From the NCBI GenBank assembly GCA_947627925.1, contig CANQXW010000004.1, forward strand, positions 1-57,266: 57,266 nt of DNA. Direction: 5' to 3'. The notes beneath the pieces are model-generated. The model saw nothing but the letters and a program-made list of their open reading frames with translations. It searched no databases and was not told the origin of the DNA. The position numbers and the translations under genes are program-made. Each line of letters opens with the position of its first letter. Positions within the stretch are counted from its first letter, which is position 1. The DNA comes from an uncultured Bacilli bacterium. GTDB lineage: Bacteria; Bacillota_I; Bacilli_A; RF39; UBA660. Shown piece by piece: positions 8,495-48,401 of the stretch.

Positions 8495-11400
8495 TTATTT
8501 TCTATTTCCTCTTCCAAATGTATTATTATTGGTAACATCTTGCGTAAATGACGCAAAACTAATTTTAAGCATATTCAAAGCATGTCTAAAACTTACTACA
8601 GCTTCTTCTTCATCAAGATTTAAAAATTCTGCTAATCTAGAAAGATTAAAATTTTTACCTTCCATGTAACACACAAGTAAAAATGTAAATATTACACTAT
8701 CTTTTAAAGTTTCATTTAATAATAACCTTCTAAATCGGGAAATTTTTAAAAGTTCCATGGCTTTTAGATAAATATTATTCATTTCTTCATCGCTTAAATC
8801 TGGTATAGTTTTTGAAGTAACTTCTTCAAATGCCCTTTCAGAATCAGCGGGTTCTGGTTCTTCTGCTAATATAGAAGGATCAAGAGTTTCTACTGGCTCT
8901 TCTAGTGATACTAATTCTGGAGCACCATCAGGTTCTTCTATTGTTATAGAATCATCAAGAACTTCCGTTGATTCTTCTAATGATACCAATTCAGGAGCAA
9001 CTTCATCTACATCTGGTGATAGTTCTTCTATTGATGTAGAGGTATCAAGAACTTTCGTAGACTCTTCTTGTACTACTTCTATAGTAGCATTTTCTTGTAC
9101 CGTATTAGTAGTTAAATCTTTTTCTTTTGAATCTTCTAGAACATCAAGAGTTTCTAAATTTTCTTCTTTTTCTTCACGATGACTATTTAAGAATTTTAGA
9201 AGCAAAGGAGCAATTTGGATACTAAATCGGCGTTTTCTTGATGGCGTCCATATTTGGGCATTTAACTCATCAAGATTTCTTCCCCATCTTTGATAAATAA
9301 GATCTTTATTTGATTCACCTAAAGATTCAACGGCCTTTAGCATTTCTTCTTTAGAATACTTGCTAAACATAGGCATTTCTAAAATTGGTAAAGTGAGATT
9401 TCCATAGGCGCTAACGGATTTACCATCTCTTAATCTTTCCATTATACCTATTAATCTATCGTTTAAATTTTTAGCTAAAAGTTGGGAATCTTTATATGAA
9501 CAATGGGAATTTTTAATCGGATGTTCTAAATCATCGCCCCATTTTAATTTCATTGCCGCTTTTATATTTGTGGGCAAATAATTAATTGCTTCGATGATTT
9601 CCTCCCTAGAATATTTACTTAAGGCTGGATCATTTAAAGGAGTTATTTTATCACTAGAATCATCTCTAGAACCAAATTCGGTTGTCAATAAATCAAAAAT
9701 TCTCGGATAAATATTACTATATAATTGATATTTATGACTCGTTCTCCAAATAGGACTTCTAACCGGATGTTCTAAATCAGAACCAAAGCTAAGATTTATT
9801 ATTTCTTTATAATTATCTGGCAATCTATCTATTGCCCAAAGAATTTCTTCTTTCGTATATAATTTAAAATCTTCATATGCAAAAATAGGTTTCACTTTAT
9901 TTGCCATTTTTCCACTTCCTTCTATATTATTTTTTGATTTCGTAGCTTGTTTAGGAGATGAACCTTTTTTAGAAATTTTTGGTTTTCCCCAATTTTCAAG
10001 GCGATATTTACCTTGATTTGCTTTATTAGGCCAAATACTAACTTTTATAGGAGTAAAAGATGTATGATATTCAACTATCTCTATTTCGCCTCTTTGAGCT
10101 CGCTCTTCGAGTTTTTGCCTTTCAGCTTTTCTTTTCTCTTCCATTGCTCTAACCGAAACCAAATGATAGGCATCAGCTCCATTAACCTGAGCGGGAGATT
10201 GATTAGGTTGATTTTGAGGATTGGAATCAGAAAAATCTCTTAATTTCTTAGCTCTCGATGGATGTCTTAACTTTCTTAAAGCCTTCACTTCAATTTGTCT
10301 AATCCGCTCTCTCGTAACGCCAAATTTTTTACCAACATATTCTAATGTATGCTTTTTACCATCTTCAAGGCCAAATCGTAATTTTATAACTTCAGCTTCT
10401 TTGGGAGATAAGTATTCTAATACCTCAGATATGGACTTTTGCAACATGATAAATTCTACTTCTTCTTCGGGAGTAAGTTCATTTTCATCAGCAATAAAAT
10501 CTATTAGCAAAGAATCTTCATCCTCACCGATAGGTGTTTCCAAAGATACCATTTGATAACTCTTATCTTTTAAATCCTTAACTTTCGAAACTGGTATATT
10601 CATTTCCGCGGCTAGTTCTTCATCAGTTGGTGCTCGGCCCAATTTCATTTCTAAGTTTTTTTCTACCTTATTCATATTACGCATGTTTTCAACAACATGA
10701 ACAGGTAATCTAATAGTTCTCGATTTATCAGCAATAGATCTCATAATACTTTGCCGAATCCACCAAGTTGCATAAGTCGAAAATTTGTAGCATTTCTTGT
10801 AATTATATTTTTCAACAGCTTTAATTAACCCAAGATTGCCCTCTTGAATTAAATCTAAGATATCTATTCCTTGGTCTTGATACTTGCGTATAAATCCCTT
10901 TGCCACCCAAACAACTAATCTTAAATTAGCCTCGACAAATCTATTGCGAATTTCCATATTGTCGGGATTTTCCTCTAAAATTTTTCCCAATCGTTGCTCC
11001 TCTTCCATAGTAAGCAAGGGAGTATTGCCTATTTCGATTAAATAAATTTTAAGTGAGTTAGCGGAAGAACCCCAAACGCCTTTCAATAGAGCTTCATCAC
11101 TATAATCGCGATCCTTAACTTCCACATTATTTATATTACAATAAATTTCCAAAAATAATAGTAAAGACTCTTCTTTTAAAACACCTTCTATGCCATCATT
11201 TTTAATTTCTTCCTTATGTTGAGACACTAATTCCCGAAATAATCCATTTAAAATAGCATTTCTCTTAAATAATTTAATAATTATTTCTTCTGATGGACTA
11301 TATTGTAAATCTTCTAAAAATTTAGCTAACTTTTCTAAAGAATTTGTAACATTATCTATTACTAAATTATGATCAATAAAATCCATAATAATTTGTAAAG

Positions 11401-11674
11401 CGCGAATATAATCATCCATTATAAAAAATAATAGTTTTTCTTCAAAAATATTTTCTATATTAGAAAGATCATTTTCGGATAAACTAGCAATTACCTCTTG
11501 CATTTGGGGAACAATTAATGAAGAGAATTCATCTAAAGAATATGAGTTTTTAAAGCGTTCATAAAAAGTTTTAATAAAAGAAAAAAAGAAAGATTCTATA
11601 TCATTTAGAGAATATGATTTAAGTTTTGTTAAATTTAAATTTTCCATATCCATCAATCTTTCTTTTAATATCAT
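8495..11674 (-). CDS. rpoD: group-1-like RNA polymerase sigma-70 factor with a long C-terminal extension
   Basis: 1059 aa. Residues ~205-481 carry primary-sigma signatures: '[12 protein letters not shown]', '[13 protein letters not shown]', '[17 protein letters not shown]', '[10 protein letters not shown]', 'IRLPVHVVE' and '[39 protein letters not shown]'. The protein then continues for 578 more residues (see findings). Confidence 0.85.
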
Positions 11675-22475: not shown

Positions 22476-24347
22476 TTAAATTTGTTCTAATTTAGGCATG
22501 GCAGCTACTTGCTCACCAGTATTTAGTATTTCACCCGTAACTGTACTAGATCCTACTACTGTTTCTGTGGTGCCAATATCACTTGATATATTATTTTTAG
22601 AATCCCAATATGAGGAAACATCACAGCTGGCTGAGTATGGTCTTGGATTAGGCATCTCTAATTTAACAATCATCGGAATTTTAAACGCTGTTCCAAAGGC
22701 GACGCAAGTACCAGGTTGTAATATTTTCATTTTTTCAATAACATCAGCACTGATATTAGGAAGCATTTCTTCAATATATTTAATATCTTTAGGGTGGGTC
22801 ATTTTAAAGATTAAAAAGTTGGAACATTGGGCAATAACAGTATCGGATATTTCTACTGGTCTTTGACTAATAATATCTAAAATAACCCCATATTTACGTC
22901 CTTCTTTAGCAATCCGATCAAAAATATTATATCCTAGTAAGAAGACATCATTATCTTGTTGAATATAACGATGGGCTTCTTCTAAAAATAAATGGAATGG
23001 CACAGTTGCTCTACTAGCATTATCTTTAGCAAAATCAAAGATAATCCGTGAATATATTTTAACTAAAGCTTTAGCATAAGCATCATCTAAAGTCTCTAAA
23101 TTAATATTAATAATTTGCGATTTATGATTATCTTTACTAACCAAACTAGTTATAAACTTAGCAGGAGAAACAAATTTATCTCCAGTAAAGAATTTACCCA
23201 TTTCATTATGTAAAATATTATTAAGTCTTACTCTTAATAATTGGGCATCATCATGCATATTTTTATTTTGATTAAATCCTTCACTAATTAAAGTAAATTC
23301 TAAAGCTTTAGCTAAATCATTTAAAGTATAAACAGCATCATTAACAACATCTAAATCTTCAATATCTTCTTTAATATATTTTAAAATATAATCCGTAATT
23401 AAGACTTCTTCTCCAAAATGACCATGATTATCAATTTGGAAACATTCACTAAAACTTCTTGTATAACCAACACCTGGGATAACAGCATCTAAATTAAATT
23501 CTTTAGTATGGCAAGTATCAATAATTGTAAAGATATCATCTTTCTTTTGTCTTGCGGTATTAGGACTATATAAAATAGTGATTAAAGCTTTAGCAATAAT
23601 ATTATTTTTATATTCATTAGCGGCTTCATTATCCGTGGCAAATATTTTAGCATATTTCATCGCTCTATCAATTATGGTTAGTTGAGAGTGCTTATCGGCT
23701 TGAAGTAAAACTCCTAAATCATCAACTTTTAATAAATTTAAAGGAATGTTAATTAAAACATCAGTGTCATCTTGAGGATGTGCTGTCACAAATTTATAAT
23801 TGTAATAAGGACTAATTGCGTTAATATTTTTAAAAGCATTTTTATATTCGCCAAAAGAATCAAAGAAAATTAAATTGGCATTATAAGCCAAAGCATTTTT
23901 ATTACTTAAAATATTTTGGACTACTCTAGATACTCCACAAGATTTACCAGAACCTGAGTTACCAAAAATACACATATGATTAGCAAATAAATCATTAATA
24001 TTCGGACAAACATTAAAGTTTTTATAGGTAGCACTAGCTCCTAAAACAAAGTTTTTGTTAGATTCTCTTCCGACTAATTCATATAATTCTTCCGTATTAA
24101 TAACTCTTATTTTACTATTTAAACTAGCTTTTCTAAGTAAACCATTATTATAATGACCATTTATATATTCCCCTAGAAAACGAACTTCAATTTCTTTTTC
24201 TTTAAGTTCGACAATCTCGCCTAAAATCTTTTGATCACCATTTTCAAAAATTAAATGCAAATTAAGTAAATCGCCCGCTGCTTCTGACCCTCCTAAATTT
24301 TCAATAAACGCTACATTATCACTTATGTATAATATTTTTCCAAACAT
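22476..24347 (-). CDS. HerA/DUF87-like (FtsK-HerA superfamily) P-loop ATPase
   Basis: 623 aa. N-terminal barrel-like region, Walker A 'IFGNSGSGKSCG', Walker B/'FLEEAHRY', and 'GRKYGVILDIISQRPVEISDTVIAQCSNFLIFKM'. AAAGGGA Shine-Dalgarno, 24 nt after the preceding gene. Confidence 0.75.
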   Translation of the reverse strand: MFGKILYISDNVAFIENLGGSEAAGDLLNLHLIFENGDQKILGEIVELKEKEIEVRFLGEYINGHYNNGLLRKASLNSKIRVINTEELYELVGRESNKNFVLGASATYKNFNVCPNINDLFANHMCIFGNSGSGKSCGVSRVVQNILSNKNALAYNANLIFFDSFGEYKNAFKNINAISPYYNYKFVTAHPQDDTDVLINIPLNLLKVDDLGVLLQADKHSQLTIIDRAMKYAKIFATDNEAANEYKNNIIAKALITILYSPNTARQKKDDIFTIIDTCHTKEFNLDAVIPGVGYTRSFSECFQIDNHGHFGEEVLITDYILKYIKEDIEDLDVVNDAVYTLNDLAKALEFTLISEGFNQNKNMHDDAQLLRVRLNNILHNEMGKFFTGDKFVSPAKFITSLVSKDNHKSQIININLETLDDAYAKALVKIYSRIIFDFAKDNASRATVPFHLFLEEAHRYIQQDNDVFLLGYNIFDRIAKEGRKYGVILDIISQRPVEISDTVIAQCSNFLIFKMTHPKDIKYIEEMLPNISADVIEKMKILQPGTCVAFGTAFKIPMIVKLEMPNPRPYSASCDVSSYWDSKNNISSDIGTTETVVGSSTVTGEILNTGEQVAAMPKLEQI

Positions 24348-24817: not shown

Positions 24818-25081
24818 CTAACTATCCATCCGACGATAATTCATTGTAACATTTTCTAAATATTCTTCAATATTTTTATATTTACTTATTAAAACTTCAT
24901 AATTTTCCTGAAATGTAGAATACATATTGGCAAAATAATCTCTAGTTGGTGAATCCCAACTACCCGTACTAGTAACACTTTTAAAAGAAGAATCAACGGA
25001 ATCCATTAAAGCCATCATATCATGAAATTTTTCCACCATATTAGATTTATAATTGTCTAAAGCCTCGTAATCACAATACAT
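24818..25081 (-). CDS. WXG100-like small protein (WDS variant of the turn motif)
   Basis: 87 aa with a central 'GSWDSPTRDYF', in the size and position typical of an Esx partner protein. Confidence 0.55.
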   Translation of the reverse strand: MYCDYEALDNYKSNMVEKFHDMMALMDSVDSSFKSVTSTGSWDSPTRDYFANMYSTFQENYEVLISKYKNIEEYLENVTMNYRRMDS

Positions 25082-25090
25082 ATATATCTC

Positions 25091-25384
25091 TCATTTCAAA
25101 ACGATGCTTTTATTTCCATAAGCATCATCAAGCGTTGTTATTGCTGTAGTATAACCTGTTATATATTCTTGATATTTATTTAATGACTCTTGAAATTCTT
25201 TTACTTCTTCGAAAAATTCTTCCATTTTCGTTTCAAAAGTATCATGGTCACTACCTTCCCAAATAGAAGCAATATCACCCATTATAATTTTCACACTATC
25301 AATATCTAATTCAAAACTATCTATGGATTCAATAATTTTATTTTTATTACTATTTAATGATCCTGTATTAACTGCTACATCCAT
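25091..25384 (-). CDS. WXG100-family (EsxA-like) protein
   Basis: 97 aa with a central 'IWEGSDHDTF' WXG motif and a helix-turn-helix length typical of ESAT-6-like proteins. Confidence 0.7.
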   Translation of the reverse strand: MDVAVNTGSLNSNKNKIIESIDSFELDIDSVKIIMGDIASIWEGSDHDTFETKMEEFFEEVKEFQESLNKYQEYITGYTTAITTLDDAYGNKSIVLK

Positions 25385-25471: not shown

Positions 25472-26131
25472 TTATGCACTTGCGCCAGAATCGGCAGTTT
25501 GAGCATTTTCGCCAGCTTGCTTAATATTGCTTATGCAACGATTTAAATCAGTATTAATAGTTTCCATGTTAGTATCAACTATGCTTTTTAAAGTTTCATA
25601 AGTACTTGCAGCAGCATTTCCTTCCCAACATTCTTCGGTTCCATTACCAATACGTGCTAAATGAGAATCAATATTTGATTTGAAAACTGATAAATTTTCT
25701 CTAATACTATCTAATTCTTCACCAATACTAACAATTGTAGCATAATCGTAAGTTACATAATCAGTATCAATTGTTTTTGCATCAAAATTACTTAAATCAA
25801 CTTTTGTAATTTCTCCTAATCCATCAAGTGCACTACCTAAGTTATCTGTTTCTAATTGACCAACTTGCGTATTTAATTCAGTCATAGAACTTTGAAATTC
25901 AGCCATAAAACTATTAGCAAATGCCACAAAAGCATCATGAGTAGTAACAAAATTATCAAAGTTTGCTTTAGCAGCACTACCTGTCCATACTCCAGGTTGC
26001 ATAAGAGCATCGATTTGTGCTTTGAATTTATCGCTAGCACCTTTTAAAGTATCTCCGCTTCCTCCAATATCATCTAATATTTGATTTACCCAACTTTTCA
26101 TACCTTCTGGTACATATTTAAATACAGCCAT
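25472..26131 (-). CDS. fused tandem WXG100-like protein
   Basis: 219 aa from the ATG at 26131 (GGAGGA Shine-Dalgarno). It has two WXG motifs, 'GVWTGSAAKANF' (N-half) and 'ECWEGNAAASTY' (C-half). Confidence 0.7.
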   Translation of the reverse strand: MAVFKYVPEGMKSWVNQILDDIGGSGDTLKGASDKFKAQIDALMQPGVWTGSAAKANFDNFVTTHDAFVAFANSFMAEFQSSMTELNTQVGQLETDNLGSALDGLGEITKVDLSNFDAKTIDTDYVTYDYATIVSIGEELDSIRENLSVFKSNIDSHLARIGNGTEECWEGNAAASTYETLKSIVDTNMETINTDLNRCISNIKQAGENAQTADSGASA

Positions 26132-26257
26132 TATTTTCCTCCTTCTATCATATATGACTCTATATATTTTTACTATATCATAACTAATAACGATATGCAA
26201 ATTCTATTTACTTATATTTTACATTTATCTACTATGGTTTTTGAATTATTTAATAAG

Positions 26258-38600: not shown

Positions 38601-40272
38601 ATTTTATTGAATCAGTAATAATTACATAATGAGGAATACATTTTTCATTATTTCGATTTAATTCTTTTCTTTCCGCTAAAATTTTTTCTAAATTATAAAT
38701 AATTTCCCGATATTCATCATTAGATGAAGCAAAAAATCTTAAAGTGCGGTCATTAGACCAATTATGAGGAAGAATTTTTATATAATCCCAATCTTTTTCA
38801 TTATCTTTAGAAGTAAATAAAACAATTTTTAGCTCATCATAACTATAATTAGCCATTATTTGGAGAATTAACCGATCAATAAATTCTTTAGTAGTTAAAT
38901 TATCCCCAATGATTCCGGTAGCTTTATTATCATAAAAAGAATAAGTAATAGGAACATCATTTAAAATTCGTTCTTTTTGACCTAAAGCTCTTGCGACTCC
39001 GATTAAATTATCCTCTTCTAAAGTAAAATGTTCTTCAGGATATTTAATATCTACTTGCATTGGTTTATTACCAATACCCACTGGTAAGGTTAAAAAGTCT
39101 TCATCATTTACCCTTCTTTGCCACAATTTAATATTATGACCTCTAATGATATCTTGACAACCAGTAACAGTAAAATTATTTTCTAATAAACTTTTTCTTT
39201 GAATTTCTAATTCATTAATAATTTCTTCTTCTTTTTTCTTTATATATTTTTTATATAATTTTTGTCTTTTTCGTTCATATAATTTATTACTTATTTTTTG
39301 ATAAGCTCTTGTTAAAAGAGGCCATAAAAGACTACTGGCTAACATCGCCCCACACATTACTAATGATCTTGTTTGACTTTTGACATCTCCTTCACCACTA
39401 TTCATTTGATCCAAAGTAAAAATTAAAGTGACAACTGAAGTCATAGCCATAGTCATCATTGGACCAATAGTTAAAATGGCCGGAGTTTTATCATCTTCCT
39501 TTTTAGTTGGGGGAACATCTAAATCTAAAACATATTTTTCTAAAGTTTTATAAAATCTAGGTGTCCTATAAAAATAATTATCTTCATTATATATTGATTC
39601 AGTATTAAGTTCTTCTTCATCAATAACTTCATCATTAGGAGCAAAGACTGGATTAACATATCTTGCATCAAAAACTAAAAGCTTATTAGGATTATTCACT
39701 AATAAATAATCATGGTTCTCTCTTCGCATGACAATTATCTTTAACCCAAATATAAAAATTATATCACCATATTCTAATCTTTTAGTTTGAATAACTCTTT
39801 TTTGATTAACATATACACTAGTTGTAGCATCAAAAATATCTAAATAAAAATATTTATCTTTCTTTTCAATAGTGAACGCTCTTTGAGGCATACCTACCAA
39901 TTTGTAGCATATATTACAAGATTCATCAGAACCTACTAATACTTTACTTTCAATTGGCAATTCTTTATAAGTATTATCATATACAGGTGAACAATATATA
40001 TAACACATTTCATCTTTATAATTATTTTTTAATAAATAAAAATTATATTCTTTTAATAAGACATAAGGAACCATCATGCCCTTACTATCTACAACATAAG
40101 CATCACTATTACTTACTAAATTCCATCCTTCTTTAGTAGCTTCAATATTAAGCAAATTAATTTTGCGGCCATTTTCAAAATCAGTAATCCAGTAATTTCC
40201 GGATACTTCATTAGGCAATGTAAAAATATTTAATTTATTTTTTCTAATTATTGTTAATTGCATTTTAACCAC
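35653..40272 (-). CDS. essC: type VII secretion FtsK/SpoIIIE-family ATPase EssC
   Basis: 1539 aa. EssC-type FHA-like N-terminus ('LPNEVSGNYWI'), two TM helices ('ILTIGPMMTMAMTSVVTLIF', 'LVMCGAMLASSLLWPLL'), P-loops 'AGTTGSGKSEF' and 'YGSAGSGKENF', and a degenerate third ATPase domain. Confidence 0.93.
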   Translation of the reverse strand: MVKMQLTIIRKNKLNIFTLPNEVSGNYWITDFENGRKINLLNIEATKEGWNLVSNSDAYVVDSKGMMVPYVLLKEYNFYLLKNNYKDEMCYIYCSPVYDNTYKELPIESKVLVGSDESCNICYKLVGMPQRAFTIEKKDKYFYLDIFDATTSVYVNQKRVIQTKRLEYGDIIFIFGLKIIVMRRENHDYLLVNNPNKLLVFDARYVNPVFAPNDEVIDEEELNTESIYNEDNYFYRTPRFYKTLEKYVLDLDVPPTKKEDDKTPAILTIGPMMTMAMTSVVTLIFTLDQMNSGEGDVKSQTRSLVMCGAMLASSLLWPLLTRAYQKISNKLYERKRQKLYKKYIKKKEEEIINELEIQRKSLLENNFTVTGCQDIIRGHNIKLWQRRVNDEDFLTLPVGIGNKPMQVDIKYPEEHFTLEEDNLIGVARALGQKERILNDVPITYSFYDNKATGIIGDNLTTKEFIDRLILQIMANYSYDELKIVLFTSKDNEKDWDYIKILPHNWSNDRTLRFFASSNDEYREIIYNLEKILAERKELNRNNEKCIPHYVIITDSIKSIDNYDFIKNIMSSEVNYGFNIIMLVDKVMALPNECRSFINVSREDCSIYSSVINSEIQKFKIDFSPIEEISNCARELANIPIDIKTEVESSLPDKYEFLEMYQVGKIEQLNSEERWKKNNPILSLQAPVGIGKSGEPIVLDLHEKYHGPHGLIAGTTGSGKSEFIITYILSLAINYNPYEVQVILIDYKGGSLAGAFSNNMYQLPHLAGTITNLDGNELNRSLDSIESEVKRRQKEFNEARDIANESSIDIYKYQKLWREGRLKGKDPIAHLFIISDEFAELKEQQPEFMDKLISVARVGRSLGVHLILATQKPGGVVNAQIWSNTRFRVCLKVQDTADSQEIIKKPDAAYLKKTGRFYLQVGTDEVFTIGQSAWAGGQYYPNTIFKRDVDTSINAINNIGFITTTKDLEVKEEVKSLGEELPNIVKYLSELAAKNNIKIKKLWLDKIPEFIYVDNLIQKYKFEKSPYNINPIIGEYDDPSTQNQFALNVPMSDLGNVIIYGSAGSGKENFLTSLIYSCMVSYTPEEVNFYIVDFGAETLRVFNNSPYVGDIVYLSDDDKFNNLIKMINLEIDSRKEKFAGFGGTYQSYIKESQEKVPNWIIIFNNFESISDNYETLLDEIMKISRDAYKYGIYLVITTSSSNSIRSRLRQNFSLIYALQQNDENEYINILGNVHKKYPAKYKGRGIFKKGDIYEFQTAYVSKENTNDYLREFINNKLKETTYRAKKIPSLPKIVNFETINEYLDNGFDIPIGINKTTLLAQKYNFRKNPINLIGAMEIESTFEFINSFVNEIIYTNYYDLLFINTTENNFSNKNLEGRIYSKNFDELINKLGKYVDDVYKVYEENDFNEEVIKNQKRYMCIVYGTHDFINKLSDETKKIFTELIKKDNQINIISFVMVDTTDILKSYAFDDWFKTGTDSSRGIYIGSGITYQSLFKVSKYDSEDREDISNDYGYVVQTSKLYKVKLLTSFVPDNETENHV

Positions 40273-40276
40273 CTTT

Positions 40277-40531
40277 TTAATACAAAATTAATTTAGAACC
40301 ATTTTTAATAGAGCTTTCTTTAACATATATTTGATCATCTATTTTTTCCCCAGTTATTTTATCGTATAAGCTTTTACAATTATCATTAACAAAAATTCCT
40401 TCACTTTCTTCTTCTACAATTTTAATTATTAAATTTTTAATAGTTCCCACTTTTTTAACAACTGGTATATACATATCAAATTCTTTTTCAATTAAAGGGA
40501 CATAAATTATTACCAATATTTTACTTTTCAT
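40277..40531 (-). CDS. esaB: YukD/EsaB-like ubiquitin-fold T7SS protein
   Basis: 84 aa immediately upstream of essC. 'DMYIPVVKKVGTIKNLII...ESSIKNGSKLILY' fits the YukD pattern. Confidence 0.75.
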   Translation of the reverse strand: MKSKILVIIYVPLIEKEFDMYIPVVKKVGTIKNLIIKIVEEESEGIFVNDNCKSLYDKITGEKIDDQIYVKESSIKNGSKLILY

Positions 40532-40537
40532 AAAAAC

Positions 40538-40750
40538 CTACCTTATTAAAAATATTACCAATAAGACAACCAAAAAGATAAATAATAATACTCCCCCAAT
40601 TATTAATGCTAAATATTTAGAATTACTTTTCTTCTCATTTTCTAAGGGTTCGGGACTTTCAGGTTTAAGATATAGACTTAATTTTGCCCCACAATTCATA
40701 CATACTTGATCACCAGGATTAATATTAAATCCACACTTATCACATTTCAT
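40538..40750 (-). CDS. zinc-ribbon single-pass membrane protein
   Basis: 70 aa. 'CDKCGFNINPGDQVCMNCG' (CxxC...CxxC) plus a C-terminal TM 'LALIIGGVLLFIFLVVLLVIFLI'. GGGTGA Shine-Dalgarno. Confidence 0.65.
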   Translation of the reverse strand: MKCDKCGFNINPGDQVCMNCGAKLSLYLKPESPEPLENEKKSNSKYLALIIGGVLLFIFLVVLLVIFLIR

Positions 40751-40782
40751 TGTCTCACCCTCTATTAAAGAAATTATAACAT

Positions 40783-40811
40783 AAATAATTTAACTTTTAA
40801 ATAATTTTATT
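40783..40811 (-). promoter_or_regulatory. putative internal promoter for the zinc-ribbon/esaB/essC genes
   Basis: Minus strand reads TTTAAA-N17-TATAAT with TGt extended -10, ~30 nt upstream of the ATG at 40750. Confidence 0.4.
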
Positions 40812-40957: not shown

Positions 40958-41311
40958 TTATATAGCTGCTAATGCGGAATTTATCGATTCTAAACTTCCA
41001 TTTATTTCATCTAATGATTGAGTAGCTCCAGACTCATTAGCAAGTGTTTCACTAGCATAATTTTTAAGCTCAGTTACTATACTATTATAAACTGATTCTA
41101 ATTTACTTGTAATTTCCTTAAAAGTAGTTGATAAATTTTCACATGTTGTTGATAAATTTGAATCTTCAGATTTAACAAGTTCACTCATTTCATTAAATAC
41201 CCAACTCATACCACTAGTATAAGAAGTAATCCCAACATCAGATCCGTTTAAAAATGTTCTTAATATAAGTAATGTTTTTGATAACTCTGTTACATTAAAA
41301 GTATTGTTCAT
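40958..41311 (-). CDS. small helical protein, family A copy 2 (T7SS-locus)
   Basis: 117 aa, paralog of 41633..41974. Shared motifs: 'MNN.FN', 'SEDS.LS.TC.N' and 'SL..IN..LE'. Confidence 0.6.
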   Translation of the reverse strand: MNNTFNVTELSKTLLILRTFLNGSDVGITSYTSGMSWVFNEMSELVKSEDSNLSTTCENLSTTFKEITSKLESVYNSIVTELKNYASETLANESGATQSLDEINGSLESINSALAAI

Positions 41312-41333: not shown

Positions 41334-41615
41334 TCATTTATTTAAATCTCGTTGTAATTTCAAAAATTGATTAGATATTTTAGTTATATTTTGCACTTCG
41401 TTTTCTGTTAAATTTTTTGTTAATCCTATAAGTTTTTCTAGTTTTTCGTTTAGCTCTCTTCCTATTTCGGTTCCTGATATAAAAATTTGATAATTAGAAT
41501 CATTCTTTAAACCAGATGCAAGTTCTCCAGATGAATTACCTATCTGTTCACCAACAAACTTTATATTATTTATTTCACCTTCCATATTACTTATTCCATC
41601 TTTAGTTAAAGCCAT
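41334..41615 (-). CDS. small helical protein, family B copy 2 (T7SS-locus)
   Basis: 93 aa, paralog of 41992..42381. Shared motifs: 'MALT', 'N.SNYQIFISGTEIGRELNEKLEKLIGL' versus 'NDNYNKFVNGTEFGRAQNEKIQKIIGL'. Confidence 0.6.
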   Translation of the reverse strand: MALTKDGISNMEGEINNIKFVGEQIGNSSGELASGLKNDSNYQIFISGTEIGRELNEKLEKLIGLTKNLTENEVQNITKISNQFLKLQRDLNK

Positions 41616-41632: not shown

Positions 41633-41974
41633 TTATAGACTATCTAAAATGCTCTTCGCATTTTCTAAACCTTCATTAGTTTGATTAAGACTTTGTGATG
41701 TTTGTGTTTCATTTTGAATTGTTTGTTGTACATAATTAGTTAATGCTGTTTTTATAACAGTCAAATTTTCTGATAATTTTGTCGATAAATTTCTGTACGT
41801 ATTATTAATATTATTACAAGTTCCTGATAATCCTGAATCTTCACTCATTACCATTCCGGATAATGATGAAAAATCATTTGAAATTTTCGAAAGAATCCGT
41901 ACTACCTCACTTTGTGTTGTTTCGATTCTATTAATAATTTCATTTATCTGATTAGCATTAAAACTATTATTCAT
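41633..41974 (-). CDS. small helical protein, family A copy 1 (T7SS-locus)
   Basis: 113 aa; see 40958..41311. Confidence 0.6.
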   Translation of the reverse strand: MNNSFNANQINEIINRIETTQSEVVRILSKISNDFSSLSGMVMSEDSGLSGTCNNINNTYRNLSTKLSENLTVIKTALTNYVQQTIQNETQTSQSLNQTNEGLENAKSILDSL

Positions 41975-41991: not shown

Positions 41992-42381
41992 TTAATAAAG
42001 AGTTTCCCTATAACTCGAATCTCCAGGCCTTGCTACGGATGGGCCAGTAGAATGTGCCGCAACATCTCTTTTTGCTGCCGCCGCAGCTTCAGCAGCAGCC
42101 TTACGATTTATTTCTTCTTGACGATAGAAAAAATAATTTAATTGAGTAGTTAAATTAGTTGTTTCATTTGTTAGATTTTGATCAAAAAGACCTATTATTT
42201 TTTGAATTTTTTCATTTTGGGCTCTACCAAATTCTGTTCCATTTACAAATTTATTATAATTATCATTTTGACCTAAATAATTTTTCAAATCAGCAATAAG
42301 CTGTTTTGCCTCATTTAATTCACTTGTAATTGCTTGAGCTGTTCCTCGTCCATTACTAATTGAAACACTTGTTAATGCCAT
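41992..42381 (-). CDS. small helical protein, family B copy 1, with Ala-rich C-terminal tail
   Basis: 129 aa with an AAAGGAGAAG Shine-Dalgarno. Extra C-terminal tail 'RKAAAEAAAAAKRDVAAHSTGPSVARPGDSSYRETLY', encoded by a locally GC-rich stretch. Confidence 0.6.
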   Translation of the reverse strand: MALTSVSISNGRGTAQAITSELNEAKQLIADLKNYLGQNDNYNKFVNGTEFGRAQNEKIQKIIGLFDQNLTNETTNLTTQLNYFFYRQEEINRKAAAEAAAAAKRDVAAHSTGPSVARPGDSSYRETLY

Positions 42382-42469
42382 AAAATTATCTTCTCCTTTC
42401 TTTTGAGCAAAAAACTATTTATGTTAATAAACTACATAAACATTCTTACTTTCCTTATCTTACATGCTT

Positions 42470-42497
42470 ATTATATAATACCCCCCCCCGGTGTCAA
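42470..42497 (-). promoter_or_regulatory. consensus sigma-A promoter (TTGACA-N16-TATAAT) at the head of the T7SS locus
   Basis: Minus strand reads cTTGACAccGGGGGGGGGtattaTATAATaagc. The -35 is at 42492..42497 and the -10 at 42470..42475, ~90 nt upstream of the first ATG (42381). Confidence 0.6.
42481..42489. repeat. C9/G9 homopolymer inside the promoter spacer
   Basis: Nine consecutive C on the plus strand, read directly. This is the longest G/C run I saw in this AT-rich window. Confidence 0.95.
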
Positions 42498-42550
42498 GTT
42501 TTGAGATTTATTTTGTTGAAAAAAAGTGTAAAGTTGTACTGGTGCAATTC

Positions 42551-42572
42551 AAAAAAGAAGCGCTGGCTTCTT
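42551..42572 (-). terminator. rho-independent terminator after the carboxypeptidase gene
   Basis: Minus strand: AAGAAGC-cagc-GCTTCTT followed by TTTT, immediately after the TGA stop at 42573..42575. Confidence 0.6.
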
Positions 42573-43727
42573 TCATTTTATAATTCTTTTACCAGAAAGT
42601 AATGTATTTAAATTTCTTTTATAATAATCCCAAAGATTAGCTTTCAACACATCTTTATTAACGGTTATACCTACTTCGCCCACAATGTTTCCTTCATTAT
42701 CAATGATTTCAGCTGTTCCTATTTCTTTACCCTTTTTTAAAGGAGCTTCTAATTTATCTATTTTGACATTAATTGTATATTCTTTATCTTTATCATTAAC
42801 ATTTAAAAGTTCTGATGCTTCATTCATTAAAATTAATTTAACACTTTCTTCTTTTCCTTTTTCTACTCTCGCTTCATCAATAACTTTATTTTTTTCATAA
42901 ATAGTTCTTAATTTATAAGAATTAAAACCATAATTTAAAAGTTTGACCGTATCACTAGTCCTATTATCCGGCGTATCAACACCCATCACGACACTGATAA
43001 GACGCATATTGCTTTTTTTGGCCGTCGCGGTTAAGCAATAACCCGCCGTTTCCGTAAATCCGGTTTTAAGGCCATCAACATCAGGATAAAAACGGACTAA
43101 TTTATTAGTATTAACAAGCCACGTACTAGAGCCATCTGGTCTTTGTAAATAATCCTCATAAATACTTGTAAAACCTAAAACTTCTGGATAATTATTGATG
43201 AGATAAGATGCCATTAAACTCATATCTTTAGCGCTACTATAATGTCCTTCAGCATCAAGACCATGAGGATTTACAAAATGCGTATGCTTACACCCTAACT
43301 CAGTACATTTCTTATTCATCATCTCAACAAATTTTTCCGTGGTTCCCGCTACTTTTTCACTCATTGCCACCACCGCATCATTAGCAGAAGCAATGGCAAT
43401 TGATTTTAATAAATCTTTAACTTTATAAGAATCTCCCGTATTTAAATAGACTTGACTTCCACCCATACTATGAGCATTTTCGGATATAACTACTTTATCT
43501 TCCATTGTAAATGAACCATTATTAATGGCATCCATAATTAAAATCATACTCATTATTTTTGTCATACTTGCCGGAGCCTTTTCTAAATCAGCTTCTTTTT
43601 CATATAAAACTTTCCCTGTAGTGGCTTCAATTAAAATAGCACTTTCACTATATTCTGTAATATCTTCGGCCACTACTTTAATAAAAGGAATCAATAAAAA
43701 ACTAAATAACACTATTATTTTTTTCAA
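42573..43727 (-). CDS. D-alanyl-D-alanine carboxypeptidase (PBP5/S11 family)
   Basis: 384 aa with a TTG start and an AAGAGGTG Shine-Dalgarno. Signal peptide, 'PASMTKIM' (SxxK), 'SANDA' (SxN), 'KTGFT' (KTG), and a C-terminal PBP5 domain. Confidence 0.9.
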   Translation of the reverse strand: MKKIIVLFSFLLIPFIKVVAEDITEYSESAILIEATTGKVLYEKEADLEKAPASMTKIMSMILIMDAINNGSFTMEDKVVISENAHSMGGSQVYLNTGDSYKVKDLLKSIAIASANDAVVAMSEKVAGTTEKFVEMMNKKCTELGCKHTHFVNPHGLDAEGHYSSAKDMSLMASYLINNYPEVLGFTSIYEDYLQRPDGSSTWLVNTNKLVRFYPDVDGLKTGFTETAGYCLTATAKKSNMRLISVVMGVDTPDNRTSDTVKLLNYGFNSYKLRTIYEKNKVIDEARVEKGKEESVKLILMNEASELLNVNDKDKEYTINVKIDKLEAPLKKGKEIGTAEIIDNEGNIVGEVGITVNKDVLKANLWDYYKRNLNTLLSGKRIIK

Positions 43728-47948: not shown

Positions 47949-48401
47949 CTAACAAACACAATCTACATAAGTATCAGATAAACATCTAATACTGCATAAA
48001 CAACTACAATCCATTGTAAAGAATGAGTTCGTTGATACATATGGATATAATGAAGTTGGATCAGTATTTTCGGCTAAAACTCTAAATGTACAACAGTTAC
48101 CTTCAATCTTTTCAACTCTAAATACAGTTGAACAAGTACCTCCTAAAGGTTGTTCACTACAATTAGTTGTTACATCTTTACTAATAGGCATACTCCAAGG
48201 TGTTCCATTACCACAGCAAGTATAAAGCATTACTGGTCTTGTGTTACATACAAGGCAATTACTTCCTCCACCAAGCATTGGTCTATCGCAAGTATCTAAG
48301 CAATTATCTGGACAAGCATTTTCTTGTAATACTAAAATTATACTTAAAATTTCATTAATACAATTTCCAGAATTTGAATTTCCTGAATTATTATTATTCA
48401 T
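47949..48401 (-). CDS. CotY/CotZ/ExsY-family cysteine-rich spore coat/exosporium protein
   Basis: 150 aa and Cys-rich. 'CNTRPVMLYT', 'TVFRVEKIEGNCCTFRVL' and the C-terminal 'DCSCLCSIRCL' parallel the Bacillus CotY/ExsY pattern. Confidence 0.7.
   Translation of the reverse strand: MNNNNSGNSNSGNCINEILSIILVLQENACPDNCLDTCDRPMLGGGSNCLVCNTRPVMLYTCCGNGTPWSMPISKDVTTNCSEQPLGGTCSTVFRVEKIEGNCCTFRVLAENTDPTSLYPYVSTNSFFTMDCSCLCSIRCLSDTYVDCVC

Follow-up and report, generated by a model that had tools for sequence, protein, structure and literature searches.

We analyzed a stretch of DNA of 57,266 nucleotides (nt) from an uncultured Bacilli bacterium (referred to below as the window), in which a run of nine G residues (G9) separates the −35 and −10 hexamers of a putative promoter located ahead of a four-gene cassette and a type VII secretion locus. 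The results suggest, with a probability that we put at roughly 0.55, that G9 is a slippage-prone contingency tract in the spacer of a spacing-dependent sigma-A-type promoter that drives this portable cassette of small helical proteins. The anatomy of the site, the homology of the tract in related loci, its difference in length between lineages and the consequences of that length for reading frames were read directly from the sequences.

A G tract in the spacer of a consensus promoter

On the minus strand, positions 42497–42470 read TTGACA-cc-GGGGGGGGG-tatta-TATAAT, where both hexamers match the consensus perfectly and nine of the 16 spacer nucleotides are G, as described in a first-pass annotation of this DNA. 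The site was the sole 12/12 promoter match on either strand of the window (approximately 0.22 expected under an independent and identically distributed base-composition model with spacers of 16–18 nt). The same annotation held that the run stands out in an AT-rich genome, and the G9 at 42481–42489 proved to be the only G or C run of seven or more among the 57,266 bases, which have a GC content of 28.5%; by chance, approximately 0.006 C9 runs and 0.00015 G9 runs would be expected in the window. The promoter is situated in a 191-nt intergenic gap, which extends from the terminator of a dacA-type gene to the ATG of cassette gene 1 (42381) and is the sole intergenic gap upstream of gene 1; it follows right after the upstream terminator and lies approximately 82 nt ahead of gene 1. 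The features of this region are as follows (L numbers, here and below, designate related loci).

42573–43727, upstream of the promoter: gene for a DacA-type D-Ala-D-Ala carboxypeptidase (Peptidase_S11 and PBP5_C)
42549–42573, minus strand: terminator hairpin, containing G+C, and T-run of the dacA-type gene
42525–42552, minus strand: TTGAAT-16-TACACT, a weak promoter-like site (8/12) immediately past the dacA terminator
42492–42497, minus strand: −35 hexamer TTGACA (TTGACT in L024)
42476–42491, minus strand: 16-nt promoter spacer cc-G9-tatta, with cc at 42490–42491 and tatta at 42476–42480
42481–42489, minus strand: G9 homopolymer (C9 on the plus strand), the candidate slippage tract
42470–42475, minus strand: −10 hexamer TATAAT without TG extension, identical in L024
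42416–42442, minus strand: weak 9-bp hairpin, TGTTTATGT / ACATAAATA, stem 42442–42434 / 42424–42416, with a 9-nt loop
42409–42414, minus strand: T6, which together with a preceding tag follows the weak hairpin

Promoters of the sigma-70/sigma-A type are sensitive to the spacing between their hexamers. The −10 hexamer lacks an extension, so the G9 promoter would need the −35 contact and be dependent on spacing. The predicted states in the window are G8 with a poor 15-nt spacer, G9 with an active 16-nt spacer, and G10 with the optimal 17-nt spacer. We infer that the promoter is used, that the tract slips within populations and that slippage affects expression, in which case gain or loss of one G would tune the transcription of the cassette through the −35/−10 spacing. 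The dacA terminator is predicted to insulate the promoter from upstream transcription.

Downstream of the promoter, the hairpin and the T-run had been proposed in the first-pass annotation to be an attenuator. Both elements are present, and the hairpin is near-identical in L024, but it is weak (−5.3 kcal/mol), contains almost only A-U pairs, and would best be read as a relic of the strong terminator found in the relatives. A three-codon mini open reading frame (ORF), ATG TTT ATG TAG, at 42432–42443 (minus strand) overlaps the 5′ arm of this hairpin and has a plausible ribosome-binding site (RBS), aaggaaag, approximately 5–8 nt upstream. In L024, only ATG TAG is left of the mini-ORF, poorly spaced from the RBS. 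The mini-ORF may be what remains of a translation-dependent device against the hairpin, or it may have arisen by chance. Rfam scans of the window leader and of the loci of six relatives revealed no riboswitch or leader family.

The tract in related loci

Gene 1 was searched in 5.8 billion proteins, and the single-sequence search gave three clusters and the profile search 14. The gene is rare, and all of its relatives came from ENA, Logan or NCBI metagenome assemblies or metagenome-assembled genomes (MAGs), the sources including the cattle-rumen MAG sets RUG591 (‘uncultured Clostridiales’) and STEW19 contigs. No relatives appeared when JGI metagenome contigs were scanned twice with protein profiles, and a scan of GTDB genomes showed a single species with a relative, RUG591, in which the tract was missing. 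The upstream region of gene 1 was extracted from every locus, and the leaders were aligned. The results showed that G8 or G9 occupies the same alignment columns in six lineages, i.e. the window, L024, L003, L004, L020–22, and L027/28, although the gene 1 proteins of these lineages are only 55–76% identical. A motif TTG(A/T)CA-N2-5-G8-9 is common to the lineages.

The tract occurred in two arrangements. In the promoter type, G9 was found in the window, L001, and L002, and G8 in L024 (TTGACT-ct-G8-tatta-TATAAT, with a 15-nt spacer). The synteny of L024 with the dacA terminator is as in the window, and its gene 1 is 73% identical. The best conserved stretch between the two extends from AAAAC through the −35 hexamer, the tract and the −10 hexamer to TAATAA, and the sequence further upstream could not be aligned; the block AAAACTTGAC-N-C-N-Gn-TATTATATAATAA is thus kept between flanks that are unalignable. 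Gene 1 of L024 (positions 433–890) carries a 14-nt frameshifting deletion in comparison with the window and L003, which is not a homopolymer miscall and represents either a pseudogene or an error in a contig of 1.5x coverage.

In the other arrangement, the tract is part of a short ORF in the leader, with G8 in L003, L004, and L020/21/22 (three samples) and G9 in L027/L028 (two samples). In the aligned leaders, the counterpart of the −35 hexamer in L003, L004, L020, and L027 is TTGTCA, which provides Leu-Ser codons of the leader ORF. We considered whether the tract could lie in a promoter spacer in these lineages as well, and this was rejected, as only TAGGTA (2/6) follows TTGTCA at the right distance. 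A SigB-like −10 element GGGTAT was also rejected, because there is no GTTTAA-like −35 at the right distance and L004/L020 have GGGCTT.

No tract was found in L005/L012, L006, and L018/L029, which also lack the leader ORF and the hairpin. L026 has the promoter, the leader ORF and the terminator, and an A7 run (AATAAAAAAATTC) replaces the G tract (L026:15–216). Its 26-codon leader ORF stops at a TGA inside the 5′ arm of the terminator and looks constitutively ‘long’.

Illumina reads are known to end in artefactual poly-G runs, and one Logan contig, L002 (ERR10663728), terminates on the first base of TTGACA, 8 nt past the tract, which could suggest that the tract originates from assembly or two-colour chemistry. 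This explanation is refuted, as the tract has a defined length, is internal to well-assembled contigs in independent ENA and Logan assemblies, and recurs at the homologous site in diverged lineages. The end of L002 is probably due to a drop in coverage near the homopolymer. As a possible sign of tract heterogeneity it is uninformative, since a G8/G9 branch in a k=31 graph would interrupt the contig within the tract and not 8 nt past it.

The conservation of TTG(A/T)CA-N2-5-G8-9 across lineages would also be expected if the G run were a protein-binding or structural element, such as an operator or a rigid spacer, in which length changes have no role. Many tract-free cassettes are paired with a divergent helix-turn-helix (HTH) regulator, so the cassette appears to be regulated in general. 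However, none of the tract-bearing loci examined has a regulator gene beside the cassette, and the tract is found in two quite different contexts, a coding leader and a promoter spacer. We therefore consider a binding or structural element improbable. The most obvious property common to both contexts is instability of length, and this is our main argument that the tract has probably been kept as a mutable switch and not as a sequence-specific signal.

The leader ORFs of L003, L004, L020, and L027 are 18–19 codons long in the G8 form, with the tract near their 3′ end. The RBS is GGAG, located 8–10 nt before the ATG, and the promoter lies approximately 60 nt upstream (TTGAAA-17-TATACT, TATAAT or TACAAT). 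Approximately 50 nt past the leader ORF there is a terminator of −10 to −14.8 kcal/mol with a T-run, which is followed by the RBS of gene 1. Three of the leader peptides are shown below.

L003: MYKSSKKINNLSTMGGVY*
L004: MVQIIFDTKVNDLSTMGGA, which ends in KVNDLSTMGGA
L020: MKLNIFDIKVNVLSTMGGA*

Each leader was re-translated with the tract set to G7 through G10. With G7, G8, and G10, the leader ORF had 18–21 codons in all four lineages, and the stop was approximately 105 nt upstream of gene 1. With G9, it had 39–50 codons, and the stop was either in the terminator loop (L003) or past the entire terminator, 18–22 nt before the gene 1 ATG (L004, L020, and L027). L027/L028 have G9 naturally, and the gene caller predicted a 50-amino-acid (aa) gene there, while their close relative L004 has G8 and the short ORF. 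The probability of a long open frame in the G9 phase was P = 0.03–0.10 per lineage by dinucleotide shuffles. The frames in which L004 and L020 cross the homologous hairpin are not the same, yet both are open. A synonymous ACC/ACG change distinguishes L004 from L020 in the Thr codon beside the tract. In the genes of the window, GGG accounts for 6.7% of Gly codons, the lowest share of any, and GGG-GGG occurs in none of the 40 Gly-Gly pairs. Because of this rarity, the maintenance of ATG-GGG-GGG-G across lineages points to selection for the homopolymer itself and not merely for Gly-Gly.

We infer that the relatives use a leader-peptide attenuation switch analogous to that of the Streptococcus gallolyticus pil1 locus. 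With G8 (or G7 or G10), the ribosome would stop approximately 50 nt before the terminator, the terminator would form, and expression would be low. With G9, translation would proceed into or through the terminator, and expression would be high.

The presence of the tract in translated leaders raises the question of whether it acts at the level of RNA in the window, just as it may do in lineages with a leader ORF, through polymerase slippage, ribosomal frameshifting or RNA pairing instead of a change in DNA length, after being transcribed from upstream by dacA read-through or from TTGAAT-16-TACACT. The tract is certainly transcribed in the four relatives, and the fixed G8 in three lineages fits a constant low level of transcriptional slippage that makes some long-leader mRNAs. 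In the window, however, the leader frame has neither a start codon nor an RBS, every frame stops before the hairpin, transcripts from the consensus promoter would begin past the tract, and the upstream gene ends in a good terminator. Moreover, none of the leaders belongs to an Rfam family, and RNA polymerase slips less readily on G/C runs than on A/T runs. An RNA-level role thus seems improbable, if a little less so than a binding element. Pairing between the G run and the terminator, as in the poly-G antitermination of pyrG, was rejected separately, since no complementary pyrimidine stretch is conserved across the lineages.

We compared the window with the relatives for three features of a pil1-type switch, i.e. 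a translated leader containing the repeat, a strong terminator, and a shift of the leader stop upon repeat change. All three were found in L003, L004, L020, and L027, and none in the window. What is left of the leader frame is the following remnant.

42471–42512, minus strand: ..NKSQNLTPGGGII (..NLTPGGGII), without an ATG/GTG start or an RBS

The remnant is homologous to the leader ORFs ..KSSKKINNLSTMGGVY (L003), ..KVNDLSTMGGA (L004), and ..KSSKKINNLSTMGG... All three frames stop before the hairpin, and a repeat change cannot move the leader stop into the terminator. Judged by these features, the leader-ORF machinery of the window is clearly defunct. In the leader alignment, TTGAAT-16-TACACT of the window corresponds to the strong TTGAAA-17-TATACT promoter of the leader-ORF lineages, and it is probably the decayed ancestral promoter.

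A neighbour-joining tree of gene 1 (approximately 96 residues, weakly resolved) showed the leader-ORF state in both clades, with L003 grouping with the window and L024. Since the leader-ORF state is present in both clades and the window keeps a start-less remnant, the promoter arrangement is most simply read as derived from the leader-ORF state. The tract would then be older than the promoter and would have been present in the leader ORF before the hexamers arose. Around the retained tract, the ancestral TTGTCA would have changed to TTGAC(A/T) and TAGGTAAT to TATAAT, while the window and L024 would have lost the start and the promoter of the leader ORF and their terminator would have decayed to an A/U-only hairpin. 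We tentatively propose, with somewhat less than even confidence, that one ancient portable tract has served in two stochastic switches, first as a leader/terminator switch (G8 off, G9 on) and then through promoter spacing in the window.

Several observations weigh against a contingency tract. There was no variation in tract length within lineages (three window-type G9, three L020-type G8, and two L027-type G9 contigs), although assemblies show the majority allele only. The claim of phase variation in the first-pass annotation, which had suggested a comparison of the tract among strains and MAGs, is therefore partly supported, by the features of a spacing-dependent promoter and by the length of 8 or 9 between lineages, but not by variation within a lineage. 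The only promoter-type relative with G8, L024, is the 1.5x-coverage contig with the 14-nt gene 1 deletion, the tract is missing altogether from some cassette lineages (L005/L012, L006, L018/L029, and L026), and the host is probably mismatch-repair-proficient, which bears on the slippage rate of G9. In addition, a promoter with a 16-nt spacer works without any change in length, and the tract could now be no more than an inherited, inert spacer.

The last point leads to the main rival explanation, namely that the promoter is fixed and the tract an inert leftover of the ancestral leader ORF, with the cassette expressed constitutively or controlled otherwise and no meaningful switching. The presence of G9 in all three window-type assemblies, the working promoter provided by the existing spacer, and the dead leader machinery of the window (no start, frames that stop before the hairpin, and a hairpin of −5.3 kcal/mol) would all agree with this. 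On the other hand, a non-coding G9 at 28.5% GC should decay fast, yet both promoter-type lineages have kept the tract whole, with a difference in length only. The flanks have evolved toward consensus hexamers exactly around the run, and a promoter without an extended −10 is sensitive to spacing. We consider an inert tract rather unlikely, and we favor a slippage-prone tract that tunes the promoter.

The cassette and the downstream T7SSb locus

The first gene after the G9 promoter belongs to a cassette of four genes, which precedes the core genes of a type VII secretion system (T7SSb). The features of this part of the window are as follows.

41992–42381, minus strand: cassette gene 1, 129 aa, helical hairpin with an EsxA-like predicted fold; RBS aaggag at 42393–42398
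41633–41974, minus strand: cassette gene 2, 113 aa, always with gene 1 in relatives
41334–41615, minus strand: cassette gene 3, 93 aa, always with gene 1 in relatives
40958–41311, minus strand: cassette gene 4, 117 aa, always with gene 1 in relatives
40773–40801, minus strand: separate promoter-like site TTTAAA-17-TGtTATAAT with an extended −10, just upstream of the Zn-ribbon/EssC block
35653–40750, minus strand: T7SSb core block of three genes, detailed in the next three lines
40538–40750, minus strand: Zn-ribbon membrane protein
40277–40531, minus strand: 84-aa ORF
35653–40272, minus strand: EssC (TIGR03928 T7_EssCb_Firm, 1018.5 bits against a cutoff of 778.4; FHA and FtsK_SpoIIIE domains)
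34542–34847: DUF4176 gene (Pfam)
25472–26200: 242-aa WXG100 ORF (PF06013, 35.7 bits, above the gathering score of 27.3)
25091–25384: 97-aa ORF (PF06013, 23.5 bits, below the gathering score of 27.3)
24818–25081: 87-aa ORF (PF06013, 25.2 bits, below the gathering score of 27.3)

None of cassette genes 1–4 matched a Pfam or NCBIfam family (for gene 1, there was no match at E ≤ 0.01, including the PF06013/Esx models). The gene 1 profile gave no Esx match among PDB sequences, only spurious coiled-coil or TPR hits, and a profile-profile comparison between genes 1 and 2 detected no homology. An AlphaFold (AF2) model of gene 1, based on 13 homologues, showed a long helical hairpin (helices 5–48 and 50–110) with a predicted local distance difference test (pLDDT) score of 82. 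The best PDB neighbours of the model were EsxA of Geobacillus (3zbh) and of Staphylococcus aureus (2vs0/2vrz), with target TM-scores of 0.71–0.74 and Foldseek E-values of approximately 1–2.5, the usual level for simple hairpins. The gene 1 product is thus EsxA-like in its modelled fold, and not a demonstrated WXG100 member.

In the relatives, the four genes were always found together, as a portable cassette in at least six genomic contexts, mostly without an adjacent T7SS gene. The contexts include the following.

L006–11: between gyrA/HTH and dCMP deaminase/dnaX
L005 and L012–17: beside a divergent XRE-type regulator
L018–19 and L029: beside Arc/SocA and uvrA
L020–22: ahead of uvrD
L003: ahead of mnmG

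The cassette was often paired with a small divergent HTH regulator of XRE or Arc-like type. Several distinct cassette lineages were found side by side in individual metagenome samples (for example, L019, L020, and L027 in ERZ27249041), and one genome or community may carry several copies of the cassette.

The gap between gene 4 and the Zn-ribbon gene is 207 nt. As the Zn-ribbon/EssC block has its own promoter-like site, the G9 promoter would belong to the four-gene cassette. Since no convincing terminator was found in the 207-nt gap after gene 4, the G9 promoter may add read-through transcription to the T7SS core, without being its only promoter. The designation of the tract as a ‘switch for the T7SS locus’ in the first-pass annotation is accordingly correct in that a real T7SSb lies downstream, and too broad in that the promoter directly serves the portable cassette. 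The presence of the EssC equivalog together with WXG100 and DUF4176 genes indicates that the downstream locus is a genuine T7SSb; neither Pfam nor NCBIfam revealed EssB, EsaA, or YukD.

A 2441-aa ORF at 27194–34519 (minus strand), directly downstream of the DUF4176 gene and EssC, had no Pfam/family hit. Its position suggests a giant T7SS effector or a polymorphic toxin, and the small ORFs that follow it could be immunity or chaperone genes. A gene for a HerA/DUF87-type ATPase is located at 22476–24347 (minus strand), just past the WXG100 genes. Upstream of the locus, a CotZ-like spore-coat gene at 47949–48401 (minus strand) points to a spore-forming host. Elsewhere in the window, a 1059-aa ORF at 8495–11674 (minus strand) contains sigma-70 regions 1.2, 2, 3, and 4 within residues ∼207–471 and approximately 590 more residues downstream without a family match, which makes it unusually long for a sigma factor.

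Significance and comparison with known systems

To our knowledge, phase variation by simple repeats is found mainly in a few host-adapted pathogens. There are hardly any descriptions of it for anaerobic commensal Clostridia, in which the known route is the invertible DNA switch. If the tract slips, gut or rumen Firmicutes would stochastically vary the expression of small T7SS-type proteins that probably serve as substrates or partners in antagonism between bacteria. The pil1-type switch, known so far from streptococcal pili, would then extend to a mononucleotide repeat and other cargo, and the loci would offer a rare view of one contingency tract moving between two regulatory mechanisms. If the two-switch reading is true, uncultured rumen or gut hosts would use bet-hedging in expressing secreted or competition factors, and the window would be a natural case of a phase-variation module rewired from translational attenuation to transcription initiation. 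In practical terms, the tract is a site where metagenome assemblies may mask population heterogeneity.

Phase variation by a homopolymer in the promoter spacer is established for porA (poly-G) and opc (poly-C) of Neisseria meningitidis and for vlp (poly-A) of Mycoplasma hyorhinis. The promoter type described here resembles these systems in that its two hexamers are separated by a mononucleotide run, in which a change of one unit alters the spacing (16 nt in the window and 15 nt in L024). It differs from them in that the host is an uncultured AT-rich spore-former and not a mucosal pathogen, the switch is a candidate known from sequence, and the tract of the window was evidently inherited from a coding leader ORF and did not arise in a promoter.

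In the pil1 locus of S. gallolyticus, gain or loss of repeats alters the length of a leader peptide, and translation of the long form prevents the formation of a premature terminator (Danne et al. 2014, PMC3894217). L003, L004, L020–22, and L027/28 have the same layout of a promoter, an RBS, a short repeat-bearing leader ORF, a terminator and an operon; in these loci, too, an out-of-frame change puts the leader stop within or beyond the terminator, and the short leader is the commoner state. The differences are that a mononucleotide run of G8/G9 takes the place of approximately 22 GCAGA units, the cargo consists of four genes with an EsxA-like first product instead of pilus genes, the switch in the relatives is predicted from sequence, and the machinery in the window appears defunct (no start codon and a weak hairpin).

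Homopolymer tracts have also been described upstream of espR and espACD in the ESX-1 system of Mycobacterium tuberculosis (Luna et al. 2025, PMC11898584), where indels of homopolymers in regulatory regions tune the expression of type VII substrates. That system is an actinobacterial T7SSa, the espR tract acts post-transcriptionally in the 5′ untranslated region, and variation was shown in thousands of isolates (PMC11898584). The tract in the window, in contrast, lies in a promoter spacer ahead of a cassette adjacent to a Firmicute T7SSb, and variation was seen between lineages only.

In a Firmicute, group B Streptococcus, the Gn tract of essC has slip-strand variants among strains (Spencer et al. 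2023 preprint, PMC9900821) and is likewise a poly-G tract in a T7SSb locus. That tract is itself coding, being internal to essC, and leads to a truncated ATPase, whereas the tract in the window is non-coding and located in a promoter upstream of substrate-like genes. The earlier statement that nothing of this kind was known for a Firmicute T7SS thus holds narrowly, for a promoter-spacer tract before substrate-like genes, and not for poly-G tracts in such loci in general (PMC9900821). What appears to be new in comparison with all of these systems is the mononucleotide version of a pil1-type switch, its cargo, and above all the apparent passage of one tract from a switch of translational attenuation to one of promoter spacing.

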